From a phage, in the sequence record PX436236.1: a stretch of 64,000 nt of DNA; one strand, written 5' to 3'. The notes under the pieces are model-generated. The model did no database searches. It saw nothing but the letters and a program-made list of their open reading frames with translations, and was not told the origin of the DNA. Shown here in pieces: positions 13,868-52,006 of the stretch (positions are counted from its first letter, which is position 1; the number at the start of each line of letters is the position of its first letter). The position numbers and the translations under genes are program-made.

Positions 13868-14109
13868 AGGAAACCTCGTTTAAATTCAACTTTATCGATA
13901 TCATCAGTCTCGTGACGGATTTCGGCATTAAATTCGATAGAACCGTCTTCATGCATCATAAATGAATGGACAATAACTTCGGTATACCAAGGAGTATAAA
14001 AGTACTTTTTCAATACATGATTAGCGATAATTTCATCTAAAGTTTTATTTGGTTTAATCCAACGATTTAACATAGCATTCTCCTCTATAAGATAAGACCA
14101 TCTTAACAT
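13864..14109 (-). CDS. hypothetical protein, 81 aa
   Basis: ORF. Confidence 0.45.
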   Translation of the reverse strand: MLRWSYLIEENAMLNRWIKPNKTLDEIIANHVLKKYFYTPWYTEVIVHSFMMHEDGSIEFNAEIRHETDDIDKVEFKRGFL

Positions 14110-14135
14110 AACCTTCTTAGAAAGTAAACCCTTAA

Positions 14136-14163
14136 AACCAAAAAAGGAACCCGAAGGTTCCTT
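14136..14163 (-). terminator. Terminator hairpin (AAGGAACC-UUCG-GGUUCCUU) with U6
   Basis: Perfect stem, UUCG loop and TTTTTTGG directly downstream of soc. Confidence 0.55.
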
Positions 14164-14167
14164 ATAA

Positions 14168-14401
14168 TTAAACTACTGGGGTCGGCGTAAACATCGCCGC
14201 GTTCTTAGTTCGCCAATCGGCTGCATCAGTTACTACAGTAGTGTATGCCGCCTTTTCAGAAGGAAATGTCTGATAGTGTGCATTCGCAATACGATGCTCG
14301 TTTGAATAGATTTCAAACGGAACAGATACTTCAACACCTTTAACTTCTTTACCTTCACCAGCCGGATGCGTAAAGGTTTTGATATTAACGAAACCACCCA
14401 T
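14168..14401 (-). CDS. soc: small outer capsid protein Soc, 77 aa
   Basis: GFVNIKTF ... ANAHYQTFPSEKAAY matches the remembered T4 Soc sequence. Confidence 0.8.
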   Translation of the reverse strand: MGGFVNIKTFTHPAGEGKEVKGVEVSVPFEIYSNEHRIANAHYQTFPSEKAAYTTVVTDAADWRTKNAAMFTPTPVV

Positions 14402-14432
14402 AATAAACTCCTTTGTTGTTTAATTACAGGTG

Positions 14433-14440
14433 TATTTATA
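14433..14440 (-). promoter_or_regulatory. Late promoter TATAAATA upstream of soc
   Basis: Exact TATAAATA on the minus strand about 30 nt before the soc ATG, then AAGGAG RBS. Confidence 0.5.
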
Positions 14441-14444
14441 CTGC

Positions 14445-14678
14445 TTATTTTATCATAACCTTTTTAGTTAAAAGCTCGTCAGGATGCCTTCTGGCGTATG
14501 AAGGGCTTTCTTTTACTGGGGTATTTGAAATAACATCGCTTAATTTATCAGCTCTAGCTTTTAATTCTACGTGTTCTTTTGAATCTTTAAAAGGATGACT
14601 AATTATTTGCAAATTAAGACCATGTAATTCATATTTAAGCCCTTCCATAAATCTTGCTGGGCCCCCGTAATTATTCAT
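14445..14678 (-). CDS. hypothetical protein, 77 aa
   Basis: ORF between soc and the HNH endonuclease gene. Confidence 0.35.
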   Translation of the reverse strand: MNNYGGPARFMEGLKYELHGLNLQIISHPFKDSKEHVELKARADKLSDVISNTPVKESPSYARRHPDELLTKKVMIK

Positions 14679-15519
14679 TTTCGAACCTCTTTACCATGTT
14701 TATATAATTTTCGTCTGGATAACCTAAACTAACTGCTAACTTTCTAAAATTCACATATTTTGGTTTGTTATTAGCAATCCATAAATTCCTAAGCTCAGTT
14801 TCATAATTCCATTTGAGTTGATTGCCTCTAGCAGTTTTGCTCAAAGTTTTTCCTTTATCTTTTAGAGCTTTTTCCGAAGACTGTTTTAATTTTTGGAGAT
14901 TTAAAACTTCCTCAACAGATAAATTATTTTCTTCTGCATAGCGCGCACAAAAATCTTTTACTGTAGCTATTAGACAGTTTTTGTGGGTACCTAAAACTTC
15001 CGGATTATTTTCTTCAACCAAAACTCCCCAGTATCTTCGATAGCGAGGCATATCCCGCGAAATCCAGTCATTATACCAGAAATCAAAATTAGAATACATA
15101 AAGGATTTTCTTTTACGGAGAATGTCTTGCTCTATCCACTCCCCGCGTTTATCGGCCCATAACTTAATAGTAAGGTCTTTCTCTAAATCAGAAAGCTTCT
15201 TAAACTGGGCACTATTTGTTAGTGTCATTCTCTGGAATGCATTAAGCAAACCCACCACCTGAGTTGAGCACAAAAGATAATGAACATATATGTGTTGGTA
15301 TATAGGAAGATAGACCCTATTCCAAGGAGAGATTTTAAAATCGCTGTATTCTGGAAATGCACACTTCGGAAGTATATGATGAGCTTCCGTTTTAGATTTG
15401 GTATGGACGTTTAGTTTATACTTATCTATAATTTTTAAGTAATCATCTAAAAGTTCCCATTGCGGGAACTTTTCTTTAAGAACAGATTTGAAATTAATAT
15501 CCATTGTCCTGGCGTTCAA
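14671..15519 (-). CDS. HNH homing endonuclease, 282 aa
   Basis: HNH motif EAHHILPK...N...H; C-terminal LGYP..NY segment shared with the HNH gene at 50778-51542; sits in the soc-56 interval. Confidence 0.6.
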   Translation of the reverse strand: MNARTMDINFKSVLKEKFPQWELLDDYLKIIDKYKLNVHTKSKTEAHHILPKCAFPEYSDFKISPWNRVYLPIYQHIYVHYLLCSTQVVGLLNAFQRMTLTNSAQFKKLSDLEKDLTIKLWADKRGEWIEQDILRKRKSFMYSNFDFWYNDWISRDMPRYRRYWGVLVEENNPEVLGTHKNCLIATVKDFCARYAEENNLSVEEVLNLQKLKQSSEKALKDKGKTLSKTARGNQLKWNYETELRNLWIANNKPKYVNFRKLAVSLGYPDENYINMVKRFENE

Positions 15520-16012
15520 AGTTGTGTTTATTTTTCAAATAATAAAGTTTAAACATTTCTTCGGCCGTCATATTCAGGCCAATAGCCATATTGAATACGA
15601 AGTGCATGATGTCAATGAGTTCGAATTTAATTTCGAGTTGGTCTTCAGGAGACATTTCTGAAATAGGTTTGGCCTGTGCTTCTGGATAACGAGCTTTCCA
15701 TTTTTTCCAGACAGCAGATGCATCTTTCTCACCTTTAGACATTTCACCAAGTGAAGTCAGAAGTTCACGGAATTCATCGTCAATACAATCTTTCTGTTCA
15801 CGCATCCAAGCAACAACATCACCGGCTGTCGCTAATTTGTCCGGATGGTAACAATATTCACGGTCATTAGCCAAACGAACCTGTAAAGATTTCTGCATAT
15901 CAAGCATAACTTGCAGAGGGTCTTTATCTTCATGAATCAGAGCATTAAAATAAGCTTCCTCAGCTTTATCAACACCATCAATCAGGTTTGCGCATTCGTT
16001 AAAGTATGCCAT
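15494..16012 (-). CDS. 56: dCTP pyrophosphatase gp56 (MazG-like), 172 aa
   Basis: N-terminus MAYFNECANLIDG resembles T4 gp56; size and position agree. Confidence 0.8.
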   Translation of the reverse strand: MAYFNECANLIDGVDKAEEAYFNALIHEDKDPLQVMLDMQKSLQVRLANDREYCYHPDKLATAGDVVAWMREQKDCIDDEFRELLTSLGEMSKGEKDASAVWKKWKARYPEAQAKPISEMSPEDQLEIKFELIDIMHFVFNMAIGLNMTAEEMFKLYYLKNKHNFERQDNGY

Positions 16013-16050
16013 TATATTTTTTCCTTTTCAATTCATTAGTAAGTTAGATA

Positions 16051-16074
16051 ATTATAAACTGTTAGATTAAAGCG
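16051..16074 (-). promoter_or_regulatory. Candidate middle promoter upstream of gene 56
   Basis: CGCTTTA (MotA-box-like), 11 nt, TATAAT on the minus strand. Confidence 0.35.
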
Positions 16075-16103
16075 AATAAATATTAATTTAACAGGAGGAT
16101 AAC

Positions 16104-16304
16104 ATGGGCAGTATTTTTTACCAAATCTGGAAATTGGCCGAAAAGAAAGACAGGAAAATGATGTTAGGTTTTCTTGCGCTAGACGTATTCCTTTGGAATC
16201 TTCTAGTAGTCCCTGTAGCCGCTAGCCAAGGGATAATTTTACCAGCGGTTACAATGGAACACGTGTTAAGCATAATTGGATTCTTTAGCGGAGTTCCTGC
16301 CTAA
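16104..16304 (+). CDS. small hydrophobic protein, 66 aa, the only convincing plus-strand ORF
   Basis: Strong SD (acAGGAGGataacATG) in a 288-bp gap with no minus-strand coding; product is a predicted membrane protein. Confidence 0.4.
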   Translation: MGSIFYQIWKLAEKKDRKMMLGFLALDVFLWNLLVVPVAASQGIILPAVTMEHVLSIIGFFSGVPA

Positions 16305-17329
16305 ATTTTAGAATATTTTGAAAGTCTCATTTTTGCCATTAAACCTTGGGCTATATTAGCTTTCATATATGCCAGTACATCATTTATATCAGCTTTATCT
16401 TTCATAATCATATCATTTATATCTTTAGAAGGCCATGGAGCCTTGTCCCAGAATAGAACCCTTTCGCCAGCATCAACTAATCGTTGCATACGCTTAATTG
16501 TGTCAGGATGGCGGGGTTCATTGTCCATTACCCAGGCACGAGTTTCTTTACATGGAACCATAGCCAAGTCCAACGACCCGCCAGTAATTGCTATTGCATT
16601 CGGAACAAACAAAGAGTCAATAGGGCCTTCCATTACCCACACCAACTGACGTTCGTCAACTGTATCCATTCCATATATTTTTGTAGCTTGGTCATGAGCT
16701 TTTATTGTAATATATTTTTGTGGAGCATCTTTACGTAAGGCTCGACCCTGAAAACTTTCAATTTGTTTATTCTTATTGAAAATTGGAATAACCAAACGAG
16801 GCTCAGGCATTTCTTTAGAATAGGTCCCTGGATTGACAGAGTTCACCAATGCCGGCCATTCTTTAGTAAACCACAGCCGGTTCCATTTGTTTTCAGGAAT
16901 GCAACGTAACGTCACATATTTGATAATAGGATGGTCCTTTGGCATTCTATCTAGTCGTTCACAGAAATTAAGCTTTTCGATGACAGGCATCTTGGCTTTA
17001 ATTTTTTCAGATATCTCCACCTTAGGTGCAGCTTGTCTCCCGAACGATTGCTCTTTATGTTTCTCAAGAATATATTCTCGATATAAATCAGGCTCATATT
17101 CGTATAGATACTTCTTAATTCCTGCTGAATAGTCACAGTTAAAACAGTGCAGCATTACGGAGCCGTCATTGGCCGGATAGGCCCAAAAACGAGCTTTGTT
17201 CTCATCTTTTAGGGAGTCGCCACATACACGACAACGACAGTTTAATTTAAAATCACTACCAGTTACTTGTCTGAATTTAGGTTGATAATTCAAGGCACGT
17301 ACAGCAAATTCTCTATCGACATATGACAT
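16301..17329 (-). CDS. 61: DNA primase gp61, 342 aa
   Basis: Zinc ribbon CRCRVCGD...CFNCDY, TOPRIM region, C-terminus AQGLMAKMRLSKYSKI as in T4 gp61. Confidence 0.9.
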   Translation of the reverse strand: MSYVDREFAVRALNYQPKFRQVTGSDFKLNCRCRVCGDSLKDENKARFWAYPANDGSVMLHCFNCDYSAGIKKYLYEYEPDLYREYILEKHKEQSFGRQAAPKVEISEKIKAKMPVIEKLNFCERLDRMPKDHPIIKYVTLRCIPENKWNRLWFTKEWPALVNSVNPGTYSKEMPEPRLVIPIFNKNKQIESFQGRALRKDAPQKYITIKAHDQATKIYGMDTVDERQLVWVMEGPIDSLFVPNAIAITGGSLDLAMVPCKETRAWVMDNEPRHPDTIKRMQRLVDAGERVLFWDKAPWPSKDINDMIMKDKADINDVLAYMKANIAQGLMAKMRLSKYSKI

Positions 17330-41978: not shown

Positions 41979-41994
41979 TTAAGCGATTTCCTCA

Positions 41995-43068
41995 TTAAGA
42001 TTTCAAATAAGTTATATAACTTTCCAACCATTCAATCATTTCTGATTTTTCGGCAGTAGTCATAGGATTAACTATATCTTTAAAACTGTTAAGCATTACT
42101 TGAGACGTAACTTTTGTCTTTTCGGTTTTTACCAATTCGATAGAGCCAAGTTTTTTAATATGGTCTTCTTTGCTTTCGACTACTAATTTAACAGCTCTTC
42201 CATCTTTAATAGCTTTGTTAGCCTGACCGCGAGTCATACCGTAAAATTCTTCTAACTCGGAATTGGATAAAAATTTTGTTCCTGAAGAAACGTCCTGAAA
42301 TTTATAACGCTGACGAGCAATATCTGGTGGAAGGCCCCATCGGTCTTTAATTAGGTCGAGGGTTCCTTGAAGAAGCCTTGTTAAATGGTTGCTACTTAAA
42401 TCATTATTACGAGCGAATTCGTTTTGATTTATTACTTCCACCGGCTTGTTTTCTTCATAGTCCCATATAGTAAATTTAGAGCAATTATAGGTAACAGAAT
42501 GTTTTTCCATTTTAGAACGACCAAATTGCCATCCAGATTTAATATACTCACTAACTTCATCAGGTTTAACGTACTTGGTTTTCTGGCCAATTTTATACAT
42601 CATAGGCCAAGAAACATGCTCATTCCCTTTATCAAATTCCATCCATCTTGCAATATCATCCTCTGTTAAATCGTCAAAGCAGTTAGGGTTGAAATGCCCG
42701 CCAATTTGTTTATTGAGCCACATAGGGTCTCGTAAAACATCATTGGCTAATTGCATTTCCATTTCTGCCATAAGAGTTTTACCCCAAGTAGGGTACCATC
42801 CTACAATAAGATATTCTTTTGGACTTATACCCTTTTCTATCATTGCGTTCAATTCATTGGATGATGAGGTATAGGTTTTCCAATCAGATTCCTCAAACCC
42901 TTTTTTAGGACCACGTTTAAATGTGCAAGGTGCAGCTTTGATTCGTTTCCAAATCTTTTTAGCACCGACATATTTTTTGCCATCTTCAAAAGTGATTACA
43001 TACACAAATCCAATATAATTTTTAATATCAACTTCTTCAAATACCGCCCAATGCCCGAAATCTTGCAT
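41995..43068 (-). CDS. GIY-YIG (Seg-type) homing endonuclease, 357 aa
   Basis: N-terminal GFVYVITFEDGKKYVGA motif (GIY...YIG variant). Confidence 0.55.
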   Translation of the reverse strand: MQDFGHWAVFEEVDIKNYIGFVYVITFEDGKKYVGAKKIWKRIKAAPCTFKRGPKKGFEESDWKTYTSSSNELNAMIEKGISPKEYLIVGWYPTWGKTLMAEMEMQLANDVLRDPMWLNKQIGGHFNPNCFDDLTEDDIARWMEFDKGNEHVSWPMMYKIGQKTKYVKPDEVSEYIKSGWQFGRSKMEKHSVTYNCSKFTIWDYEENKPVEVINQNEFARNNDLSSNHLTRLLQGTLDLIKDRWGLPPDIARQRYKFQDVSSGTKFLSNSELEEFYGMTRGQANKAIKDGRAVKLVVESKEDHIKKLGSIELVKTEKTKVTSQVMLNSFKDIVNPMTTAEKSEMIEWLESYITYLKS

Positions 43069-43105
43069 GACCTATACCCTTACCATTATTAGATAAGGGT
43101 ATTTA

Positions 43106-49740: not shown

Positions 49741-49764
49741 ACCCAAAAAAGGCCCGAAGGCCTT
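49741..49764 (-). terminator. Terminator hairpin (AAGGCC-UUCG-GGCCUU) with U6
   Basis: Immediately after the nucleotidyltransferase stop and before the promoter. Confidence 0.55.
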
Positions 49765-49767
49765 TTA

Positions 49768-50778
49768 TCATTTATAATACGAGTTATGGTTTTCTAGGTA
49801 CACCTCTTCAACGAACTTGTCCCAGAATTTCATGTCTACCTTATCAGGCATACCATTCTTAGCGGCCCAGATAGCATTAGTTTCGACTTCATCTACAATA
49901 GCTTCAAGTTCAGCCTGCACATCTTTAAAAGCATGTAGCCCTTGTTTGATTTCAAGGATAAACGGTGCTGTACGTAAAGGATATTTGAGATCGCCGGTCA
50001 TATAGATTTCCTTCAACTGATAACCGGCACGATAAGCATGGCTCAGAGCTTTCCAATCGATACCTTCATTAGCTTCAGCCTTACGAGCACGTTCGCCATA
50101 TTCAGCATCAAGCTTATTCAGAGATTGCTTGAGCTCGATTAAAGACAAAGTAGTTTGGTACTTACGTCCTAGAACAGTATAGAACGTTTGAGGGCCTGTT
50201 TTCTCATGGTTATGGAATACCCATTCACAGAACTCATTTTCAGGGAGTCTGTGTTTGATATCTTCTACCTTAGTACGACGAAGTCTATCAGGGATTCCTT
50301 CTTGATAGTCAACCCACTGTTCAGGAATCTGGTTAACAATAGCCAGTACACCACGCAGTGCAGCTAGTCGAGAACCCTTAACACCATATTTAGAAGCTTG
50401 CTTACGGACGTACCCTAAATAGGCTTTCATGTTGGTTGTATAGAACCGTGAACGATTGTCTTGGATAAATTTCCATACACCAGGTAAATCAGATTTAACC
50501 ACCATTTCAGGTGGAGTGTGGAGCATATCCAGAGCAACGGTTTCGCCTTCAGCCGCTAGTTTAAAGAAATATTTCAGGCTGTAAAGCTCGTGGTCAACAT
50601 CATCTTTAGTGTTTTTGGAAGCAGTGTTATTCGTGTTCAGGTTGGTATGGTTCATAGCCGTACCTAACAGAATATCACGCGGATGTGGAACAAAGATTTC
50701 TTTAAAATCGACATCAGATTCTGGAGTACTTGTTCCATAAAGGTGGGAGCCAAAATATCCCTTCATAACTGTTCTCAT
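49768..50778 (-). CDS. polymerase-beta-superfamily nucleotidyltransferase-like protein, 336 aa
   Basis: N-terminal YFGSHLYGTSTPESDVDF (GS...DxD signature); AAAGAGG RBS. Confidence 0.5.
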   Translation of the reverse strand: MRTVMKGYFGSHLYGTSTPESDVDFKEIFVPHPRDILLGTAMNHTNLNTNNTASKNTKDDVDHELYSLKYFFKLAAEGETVALDMLHTPPEMVVKSDLPGVWKFIQDNRSRFYTTNMKAYLGYVRKQASKYGVKGSRLAALRGVLAIVNQIPEQWVDYQEGIPDRLRRTKVEDIKHRLPENEFCEWVFHNHEKTGPQTFYTVLGRKYQTTLSLIELKQSLNKLDAEYGERARKAEANEGIDWKALSHAYRAGYQLKEIYMTGDLKYPLRTAPFILEIKQGLHAFKDVQAELEAIVDEVETNAIWAAKNGMPDKVDMKFWDKFVEEVYLENHNSYYK

Positions 50779-51542
50779 TATTCACCTCTTTCATAGTCTT
50801 CAATAAATTGCATAATTAAACGTTGGTAGTTAGATTTGGGATATCCTAATTTACTAATATAAGTACCAAAAGCCCCACGCTTAGGCCTATTTAATTTAAC
50901 CCATAAAGAATAAAGCAAATCATAATCTTGCCAATGTTTTCCTATTCTTTGCTTTGCTTTAGAAGCATCAGATTGCCTCTTTTTAGTTTCCGGATTATTT
51001 AGAGATTTCTTAACAGCATTAGAATGCCTTTCTCTAACATCAGGGCGTTTAAATGCTTCTTTAATAGCTTTAGAAATTTTCTCTTTAACTTCAGGACGGT
51101 TTTGAGCTTCTATTTGAGCGGCAGACATTTTATCTTTTATTTCCGGTAGACTCATAGTTATAGAACGTTTATTTCTATACTCTTCAGTCTTCCATATTTC
51201 TTTCATCGCATTTGAATGAATTTCTGAAAATTTTTCTCTAACTAATTGGTATCCTCTAGAAGTTAGTTTAAGATTTCTTCCTAGAGAATCCTCACCGAAG
51301 CTATAAAACGACCACCAAGCATAAATTAGTCCAGAAGAATCAGAATGAATTCTAGCTAGAAGCCAGTGTGCTATAAAATGTTCTCTGGCTGTCAACAGAA
51401 CTAAATTATTAGGTTCATCACTCCCACCAATACATGATGGGAGTATATGATGGGACTCTGTATAAAAATTTAATTTGGATTTGTCTAATCCTCTAAGTTT
51501 ACCTCTTTGGATTAGACTATCATAAAGCTTGGTATAATTCAT
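50778..51542 (-). CDS. HNH homing endonuclease with NUMOD-like repeats, 254 aa
   Basis: ESHHILPSCIGGSDEPNNLVLLTAREH; repeated N(R/N)PE(V/T)K motifs; C-terminal LGYP..NY. Confidence 0.65.
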   Translation of the reverse strand: MNYTKLYDSLIQRGKLRGLDKSKLNFYTESHHILPSCIGGSDEPNNLVLLTAREHFIAHWLLARIHSDSSGLIYAWWSFYSFGEDSLGRNLKLTSRGYQLVREKFSEIHSNAMKEIWKTEEYRNKRSITMSLPEIKDKMSAAQIEAQNRPEVKEKISKAIKEAFKRPDVRERHSNAVKKSLNNPETKKRQSDASKAKQRIGKHWQDYDLLYSLWVKLNRPKRGAFGTYISKLGYPKSNYQRLIMQFIEDYERGE

Positions 51543-52006
51543 TATGGGTTTGTTTTGTTCTCGAAGTGGATTACCGGACAGACCTTAGATTTACGAGCTT
51601 TAATGTATTGAATAACGATGTTTTCTTTAGTTTCTCGGCCTTCACGCTCAGCTTGAATACGTTGCCATTCCTTTTCTTCTCTACGGGCATCATACCATGC
51701 GTGTAAATTCATCACACCGAATGCCAAACCAATGGATAGCGCAATAATAAGAGCTATTGAAACCAATCCTAAAACAAACCCTAGACTCAACAGAACAGGG
51801 GTACTTAATACAAAGAAATGCTCTAATACACCAACACCTGCAACAGTTAATCCAAAAAGCGTACTACCTGCAACAACAGCACAAGCAAAACAAGCCCAAA
51901 CCATTTTCCAGAAGTAAGCACATAAAGAGTGCGGTCGAGAATGACTGTCATAAAAACGGTCATGAAGTTTAGCGTGCCAAGAGTTTGCATTGATAATCAT
52001 AATCAT
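51542..52006 (-). CDS. membrane protein, 154 aa
   Basis: Several hydrophobic helices. Confidence 0.45.
   Translation of the reverse strand: MIMIINANSWHAKLHDRFYDSHSRPHSLCAYFWKMVWACFACAVVAGSTLFGLTVAGVGVLEHFFVLSTPVLLSLGFVLGLVSIALIIALSIGLAFGVMNLHAWYDARREEKEWQRIQAEREGRETKENIVIQYIKARKSKVCPVIHFENKTNP

Follow-up and report, generated by a model that had tools for sequence, protein, structure and literature searches.

The 64,000-nt stretch of phage DNA analysed here (sequence record PX436236.1; hereafter the window) carries, between the genes soc and 56, an HNH-type gene encoding 277 amino acids (aa) (HNH#1; 14671-15504, minus strand). This is very likely a free-standing Mob-type HNH homing-endonuclease gene, the core of a cassette that extends from 36 nt inside gene 56 to the late promoter of soc. 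The window belongs to a T4-type phage of the genus Dhakavirus (JS98/QL01-like) and is ~96-97% identical to QL01, LHE83 and PSD9 over 25 kb. The minus strand carries, in this order, soc, the passenger open reading frame (ORF) orf77, HNH#1, gene 56 and the primase gene 61. HNH#1 is one of three endonuclease ORFs, all on the minus strand, which the initial annotation had located correctly and had taken for homing-endonuclease genes of two families. Two of them hold up as Mob-type HNH genes, whereas the third, a GIY-YIG gene, sits in the slot of gene 49; the set probably consists of two homing endonucleases and one replacement of an essential nuclease.

The mechanically longest ORF at the HNH#1 position (14671-15519) begins with a TTG codon at 15519. 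The likely start codon is the ATG at 15504 rather than this TTG, because the ATG is annotated as the start in DK-13, KM16 and ACG-C40 and is common to all six orthologues aligned. Domain searches, on which the initial annotation had made the fold assignments depend, supported the GIY-YIG gene in Pfam (PF19835, 5e-34). HNH#1 was recognized not in Pfam but in PHROG, where the protein matched families 12434 ('HNH endonuclease', 4.7e-10) and 655 ('homing endonuclease', 6.6e-31). NCBIfam yielded no match to HNH#1, and neither Pfam nor PHROG gave it a GIY-YIG match. Eight columns (E40, H42, H43, P46, N62, H71, H75 and L78) were invariant in family alignments of 43 and 55 sequences. HNH#1 keeps every one of these columns, which represent the HNH motif, and the motif is fully conserved in its six orthologues. 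The Pfam HNH family (PF01844) was matched by 37 of the 55 aligned relatives, and NUMOD3 by 25. HNH#1 could be aligned end to end (residues 28-279, 27% identity, E 3e-11) with the second HNH-type gene of the window (HNH#2). The C-terminal LGYP..NY segment which had been noticed in both proteins is real, and forms part of a homologous module of ~45 aa. Judged by its sequence, HNH#1 is a divergent Mob-type HNH gene.

In the AlphaFold (AF2) model of HNH#1 an N-terminal HNH domain is followed by a helical middle part and a confidently predicted C-terminal module of three helices. The predicted local distance difference test (pLDDT) score is 78 for the whole protein and 85 for the N-terminal domain. 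Strand 39-43, strand 63-67 and helix 68-81 follow each other in beta-beta-alpha order with pLDDT ~90, and the catalytic residues map onto this predicted strand-strand-helix unit. The ratio of nonsynonymous to synonymous divergence (dN/dS), determined against the orthologue on contig L056, was 0.10, which indicates strong purifying selection. Because of this selection, and because the motif is conserved in six orthologues, the protein is predicted to be active. The only divergent patch between the cassettes of the window and DK-13 (85% identity, 14760-14819) lies within the predicted C-terminal helix 'ELRNLWIANNKP'; the region of this helix is the most variable part among the HNH#1 orthologues and a candidate for DNA contact.

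We considered whether HNH#1 reuses the DNA-binding domain of SegF as the result of a nuclease-domain swap. This was rejected, as BLASTP of HNH#1 against the SegF proteins of T4 and AnYang gave only non-significant similarity (E 0.18-0.19), confined to a short C-terminal motif. The C-terminal module is of a general kind which MobD has too, and MobD matches SegF better (2e-8).

The initial annotation had pointed out that HNH#1 lies in the soc-56 interval, where T4 carries segF, and had suggested that the same insertion site is used by different endonuclease families. Comparison with related phages bore this out. In QL01, which is of the same genus, the site is empty, with a gene 56-soc spacing of 41 nt. 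The site is occupied by segF in T4, VR26 and AnYang (the latter of the same genus as the window), by soc.1/soc.2 in T2, and by several unnamed inserts of 160-600 nt in other phages. Orthologues of HNH#1 (85-98% protein identity) occupy it in DK-13 (Gaprivervirus), in Kha5h and ACG-C40 (Tequatrovirus) and in KM16 (Moonvirus), and a further copy is found in the Dhakavirus vB_EcoM_005. The unclassified Klebsiella phage Phi_KR8 has an apparently frameshifted orthologue at the same site. This copy is decayed: tblastn needs two overlapping pieces, and the annotated coding sequence comprises only 146 aa. At an identity of at least 80%, HNH#1 was detected by tblastn in 31 phage records, and in all ten that were examined it lay between gene 56 and soc. 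The region matched 637 phage records, and segF was present in ~61. A further sample of 41 gene 56 loci comprised all states of the site as well as other short inserts. Scanning IMG/VR with HNH#1 returned a single locus, again that of phage vB_EcoM_005. HNH#1 is present or absent at one locus, with clean junctions, among close relatives; its sporadic distribution and the decayed copy fit the life cycle of a homing endonuclease.

In vB_EcoM_005 (L009/L011/L019; L009:3016-3914) there is a partial tandem duplication and the HNH gene is broken. The duplicated unit, which consists of the 3' part of gene 56 and the first ~20 codons of HNH#1, is present twice. The duplication stems either from faulty assembly of the sequence or from aberrant repair at the homing site.

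The boundaries of the cassette are sharp. The breakpoints between the window and QL01 (blastn) are at 14440 and 15491, both corresponding to position 2132 of the QL01 locus, and the segment absent from QL01 measures 1050 bp (14441-15490). Whatever occupies the site, its right-hand end is marked by the soc late promoter TATAAATA (14433-14440, minus strand). At the other end the last 36 nt of gene 56 (15494-15529, minus strand) are recoded and hold the start codon of HNH#1, the ATG of which arises from the gene 56 codons AAT GGA, 11 nt before the gene 56 stop codon. The segF genes of T4 and VR26 start at the same position, and AnYang segF has GTG there; the start context in VR26 and AnYang is CATGG and CGTGG, respectively, without the remaining recoding. 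The two endonuclease genes, of different families, thus have both junctions in common: they begin with (A/G)TG at the same point 11 nt inside gene 56 and reach as far as TATAAATA.

The gene 56 product (gp56) has the C-terminus KHNFERQDNGY in phages carrying HNH#1 (HNH+), and AENFARQDRGY in most others. The former was found in every HNH+ locus of the sample in which gene 56 is single and intact (n = 7, plus contigs L056/L057). HNH+ and HNH- phages were compared in four matched backgrounds: the window with AnYang, Kha5h or C40 with L030/L031, KM16 with L027, and KR8 with L041. Within these pairs the last 36 nt of gene 56 differ at 11-15 positions and the preceding 264 nt at 2-16. Between HNH+ phages of different genera the last 36 nt differ at 0-5 positions, and the preceding 264 nt at 51-81. 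No other HNH-linked polymorphism was seen, either in the 264 nt upstream or in the soc flank. HNH#1 is thus accompanied by a linked polymorphism of a neighbouring conserved gene, a candidate for target immunity, and we infer that the recoded 36-nt end is the self-immunity version of the target. The element is also more alike than its flanks in distant genomes that carry it at the same locus: across 14400-15540 the window and DK-13 are 97-100% identical, except in the 85% patch at 14760-14819, whereas outside this segment identity is 56-95%. Because of this difference between cassette and flanks, the comparison indicates that the cassette was recently transferred between genera.

Some observations weigh against this interpretation of HNH#1 and of the gene 56 end. 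HNH#1 had no Pfam match at E <= 0.1, and a sequence search of the PDB gave no match. T4, which has segF and lacks the HNH gene, also has the HNH-type gene 56 end, and two empty sites, L014 and L025, carry the near-identical end QHNFERQDNGY. Because T4, L014 and L025 have such an end without HNH#1, the 36-nt variant could be an ancestral flank that was carried along, and not an immunity change. The ends in L014 and L025 could be footprints of precise loss of the HNH gene, or could represent the ancestral home allele. The sharp boundary at -36 may in part be due to near-invariant sequence just upstream, which would hide the true crossovers, and the comparative sample comprised ~50 loci out of ~640 records. 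On balance, we place the target at the end of gene 56 with moderate confidence. The empty 56-soc sites of the two loci (L014:2501-3064 and L025:990-1554) measure 41-45 nt.

Gene 56 carries a second linked variant. A mid-gene allele, REYCYHPD...WKKWKARY (about 15600-15880, minus strand), was found in every segF-bearing phage sampled (5/5 loci: T4, AnYang, VR26, L013 and L015), and the segF-free relatives of these five lack it. In the window, in DK-13 and in the metagenome contigs L056/L057 this allele occurs together with HNH#1. Gene 56 of the window is AnYang-like over its first ~480 nt, and changes to DK-13-like sequence some 45 to 70 nt ahead of the stop codon. T4 is the mirror image of the window, combining segF with the HNH-type gene 56 end. 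The pattern of alleles suggests successive or competing invasions. In the simplest reading the window lineage would have met segF or a segF donor first, and HNH#1 would have taken the site later; alternatively, SegF may have cut an HNH+ genome which was then repaired with a short tract.

HNH#1 has no promoter of its own, and a scan for sigma-70 promoters over 14100-16350 did not exceed shuffled expectation. The gene is probably transcribed from gene 56, and translation would reinitiate at the ATG overlapping the last gene 56 codons, as in T4 segF. The latter, a cassette that lacks a promoter and overlaps by 11 bp, targets gene 56 (PMC2988022). The Mob enzyme MobE nicks nrdB near its own insertion site, and mobE+ phages are polymorphic at the nick site (PMC2790892). 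By analogy, HNH#1 most likely acts as a homing enzyme that nicks, and would have as its target the gene 56 end or junction free of a homing-endonuclease gene. In mixed infections, we infer, HNH#1 would nick or cut the cassette-free allele at or near the 3' end of gene 56 or the intergenic junction. With the HNH+ genome as repair template, the cassette would then be copied in together with the recoded gene 56 end and, in the window lineage, orf77, and the recoded end would protect the carrier. SegF, encoded in the same slot, has its target farther upstream in gene 56, and cleavage by SegF reportedly takes place ~210 bp upstream. With both alleles in its gene 56, the window lineage seems to have encountered the two elements, and HNH#1 now holds the site.

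Two other explanations were weighed against this mechanism. The soc-56 interval might be a mere recombination hot spot, where cassettes are swapped by homologous recombination between the gene 56 end and the soc promoter, with HNH#1 as a passive or inactive passenger. All occupants do share both conserved flanks, some of them are not nucleases (soc.1/soc.2 and the unnamed 160-600-nt inserts), and one HNH#1 copy, that of Phi_KR8, is apparently frameshifted. However, a mere passenger does not agree with the strong purifying selection on HNH#1 and the retention of all its catalytic residues, nor with the tight linkage, in four backgrounds, between HNH#1 and a 36-nt recoded stretch of an essential gene. 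Moreover, nicking activity is known from its relatives MobE and MobA, and homing activity from SegF at the soc-56 site itself. We therefore regard a passive role as quite improbable.

The other explanation leaves HNH#1 active and shifts its target, for example to soc, the soc promoter or upstream parts of gene 56, the recoding serving only to provide the ATG and the ribosome-binding context which any ORF placed downstream would require for its expression. The AAT GGA codons indeed create the ATG used by both HNH#1 and T4 segF, but of the 11-15 linked substitutions one or two suffice for an ATG, and segF of VR26 and AnYang starts at CATGG/CGTGG without other recoding. A distant target would be in line with MobE, which cuts 100-200 nt off its insertion point, as is also said of SegF, and T4 combines the HNH-type gene 56 end with segF; on the other hand, the 264 nt upstream and the soc flank contain no further HNH-linked polymorphism. 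A target elsewhere than at the gene 56 3' end is rather unlikely, though clearly less so than a passive role.

The passenger orf77 (77 aa; 14445-14678, minus strand) overlaps the HNH#1 stop codon by 8 nt. The orf77 module of 235 bp (14441-14675) is absent from the cassettes of Kha5h and C40 (Tequatrovirus) and KM16 (Moonvirus), and present in DK-13 with 98.7% identity. On contig L056 a 63%-identical homologue lies directly downstream of a 97%-identical HNH#1, orf77 thus diverging much faster than its neighbour. The frame is kept despite a 2-codon indel, and dN/dS is 0.51. The synonymous divergence (dS) of orf77 is three times that of HNH#1, therefore the module has its own history. Pfam, PHROG and NCBIfam contain no family for orf77. 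Searches of 5.8 billion and 1.84 billion proteins returned only copies adjoining HNH#1, plus two repetitive false matches. By analogy, the spread of orf77 may be explained by trans-homing (PMC2790892).

HNH#2 (50778-51542, minus strand) is an ordinary MobD at the T4 position. The protein shows 79.8% identity to T4 MobD and 100% to its counterpart in phage E33; with the Pfam HNH family (PF01844) it reached only E 0.054. The gene lies between nrdC.11 and mobD.1, as does T4 mobD (PMC2988022), and its start and stop codons overlap the neighbours. The mobD insert of 771 bp (window 50783-51553) is absent from QL01, and mobD is likewise absent from JS98 and most Dhakaviruses, so that close relatives differ at this one locus, with clean junctions. 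A gradient of co-conversion next to mobD was not seen. In the 3' end of nrdC.11 (49744-50039) identity to QL01 falls to 61-75%, between sides of 95-100%; this mosaic patch lies far from the mobD junction and is unrelated to it.

The third endonuclease ORF (357 aa; 41995-43068, minus strand), in which the PF19835 match (SegE_GIY-YIG) covers residues 10-122, had been annotated as a Seg-type homing endonuclease. The genomic context does not support this: the ORF is not inserted between intact genes but replaces gene 49 (endonuclease VII, EndoVII) of QL01 ORF for ORF, the homology breaking at 41994 and 43073. Just upstream of the start codon there is a hairpin, ACCCTTA...TAAGGGT (43076-43100, minus strand). 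Because the identical hairpin is found upstream of QL01 gene 49, the GIY-YIG gene inherits the gene 49 upstream region. The gene is present or absent among Dhakaviruses that are otherwise 95-97% identical, and it is mutually exclusive with the gene 49 product (gp49): none of the eight distinct carrier Dhakavirus phages was among the 42 records with >=95% gp49. EndoVII-like sequence was not found in the window, in PSD9 or in the complete STML-198 genome by tblastn and motif scan (for STML-198 also phmmer); in PSD9 the search covered all but 53.5-65 kb, a region covered by the window. In STML-198, TG1 and Ac42, phages of other genera, the gene 49 slot holds homologues with 58-72% identity. More distant homologues occur in Aeromonas phage 65 (35% identity) and in vibriophages (38%). 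Alternative nucleases have been proposed to replace gp49 in RB16 and phage 65 (Petrov et al. 2010, PMC2993671).

From these comparisons the GIY-YIG protein is most likely a substitute for EndoVII rather than a homing enzyme. It might instead be a genuine Seg-type homing endonuclease that deleted gene 49, the loss being offset by, for example, host RuvC or reduced branching. Its domain is of the SegE Pfam family, PHROG labels it 'homing endonuclease', and presence or absence among near-identical Dhakaviruses would suit such an element. Moreover, KVP40-type vibriophages are reported to have gp49 (PMC3468402), and vibriophages also have the 38%-identical homologues. The distant homologues may therefore coexist with gp49, and the whole family need not share one role, a point that counts against the protein as an EndoVII substitute. 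A Seg-type enzyme is nevertheless hard to reconcile with an exact ORF-for-ORF replacement that kept the upstream hairpin, with the complete absence of carriers among the gp49 records, and with the lack of a detectable EndoVII in PSD9 plus the window and in STML-198. The homologues in the same slot in three other lineages, moreover, look like a vertically inherited gene, and replacement of gp49 by other nucleases had already been proposed. We consider a Seg-type homing enzyme doubtful. That EndoVII, the essential nuclease for junction resolution and packaging, and the unrelated GIY-YIG protein are interchangeable alleles of one slot, with the same upstream signals, within one genus, and that, in addition, gene 56 is doubly immune through rival SegF and HNH#1 enzymes targeting two places in it, is a combined proposal to which we would give an even chance.

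At its C-terminus the GIY-YIG protein has 13 residues, EWLESYITYLKS (41998-42036), that resemble residues 85-97 of QL01 gp49, EWLENLLVYLKA (54% identity, E 1.6). This likeness may be due to chance.

Downstream of the cassette lies soc, encoding the small outer capsid protein (14168-14401, minus strand; Pfam Soc 9.1e-20). Gene 56 (dCTPase; 15494-16012, minus strand) overlaps the start of HNH#1 and is followed in the window by the primase gene 61 (16301-17329, minus strand). Between these two an ORF of 66 aa (16104-16304) runs on the opposite, plus strand; the annotations of QL01, DK-13, Kha5h and KM16 list it as a conserved hypothetical protein. DK-13 (L001:4131-4880), L024 and vB_EcoM_005 have an extra MobD-like HNH gene, 36-45% identical to the MobD of the window, between gene 61 and the small ORF adjoining gene 56. 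In the window 16013-16300 is free of this gene.

Homing endonucleases shape mosaicism in T4-type phages, therapy phages included, and the soc-56 interval provides, in a single place, a natural series of states: empty, segF, HNH, HNH with passenger, and decayed copy. With its sharp boundaries and a host gene marked by both elements it is a convenient system for asking how homing is promoted by an HNH enzyme that nicks, how selfish elements in competition oust one another and how passengers such as orf77 hitch-hike. The parts that deserve experiment are the doubly marked gene 56 and the replacement of gene 49. The latter, a by-product of the analysis, may matter more, as near-isogenic phages with either EndoVII or the GIY-YIG protein allow direct comparison of resolvase function and packaging. 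If the substitution is true, the GIY-YIG protein would be a new kind of phage resolvase, at present mislabelled; the database label 'homing endonuclease' can hide core functions.

Among known systems, HNH#1 resembles T4 MobD and the Mob family (MobA-E) in the N-terminal HNH motif ExHHILP...N...H...H, in being a promoter-less free-standing gene and in its C-terminal putative DNA-binding module. It differs from MobD in being only 27% identical, below detection by Pfam HNH and devoid of recognizable NUMOD3 repeats, and its site carries no mob gene in T4. For MobD itself neither activity nor target has been demonstrated (PMC2988022, Table 1). With T4 SegF, HNH#1 shares the slot, the 11-nt overlap with gene 56, the start position and the right boundary at the soc late promoter. 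Both also have a linked gene 56 variant and a related C-terminal W..LW...KP..G module. The catalytic domains differ, GIY-YIG in SegF and HNH in HNH#1, and the linked polymorphism is mid-gene for segF, whereas for HNH#1 it occupies the last 36 nt. That endonucleases of different families can use one site is already established for T4-type phages: SegH and Hef are said to replace mobC and mobE in related phages, again different families at the same intergenic site, although in the nrd region. A literature search found no description of the soc-56 HNH/segF pair with a doubly marked gene 56. The gene 49 replacement is similar to the cases of RB16 and phage 65, which lack the essential EndoVII and for which a different nuclease has been put forward as a stand-in; 65ORF061w could not be confirmed as a homologue of the 357-aa GIY-YIG gene. 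Unlike those cases, the swap seen in the window is polymorphic among members of a single genus and affects exactly the same slot.

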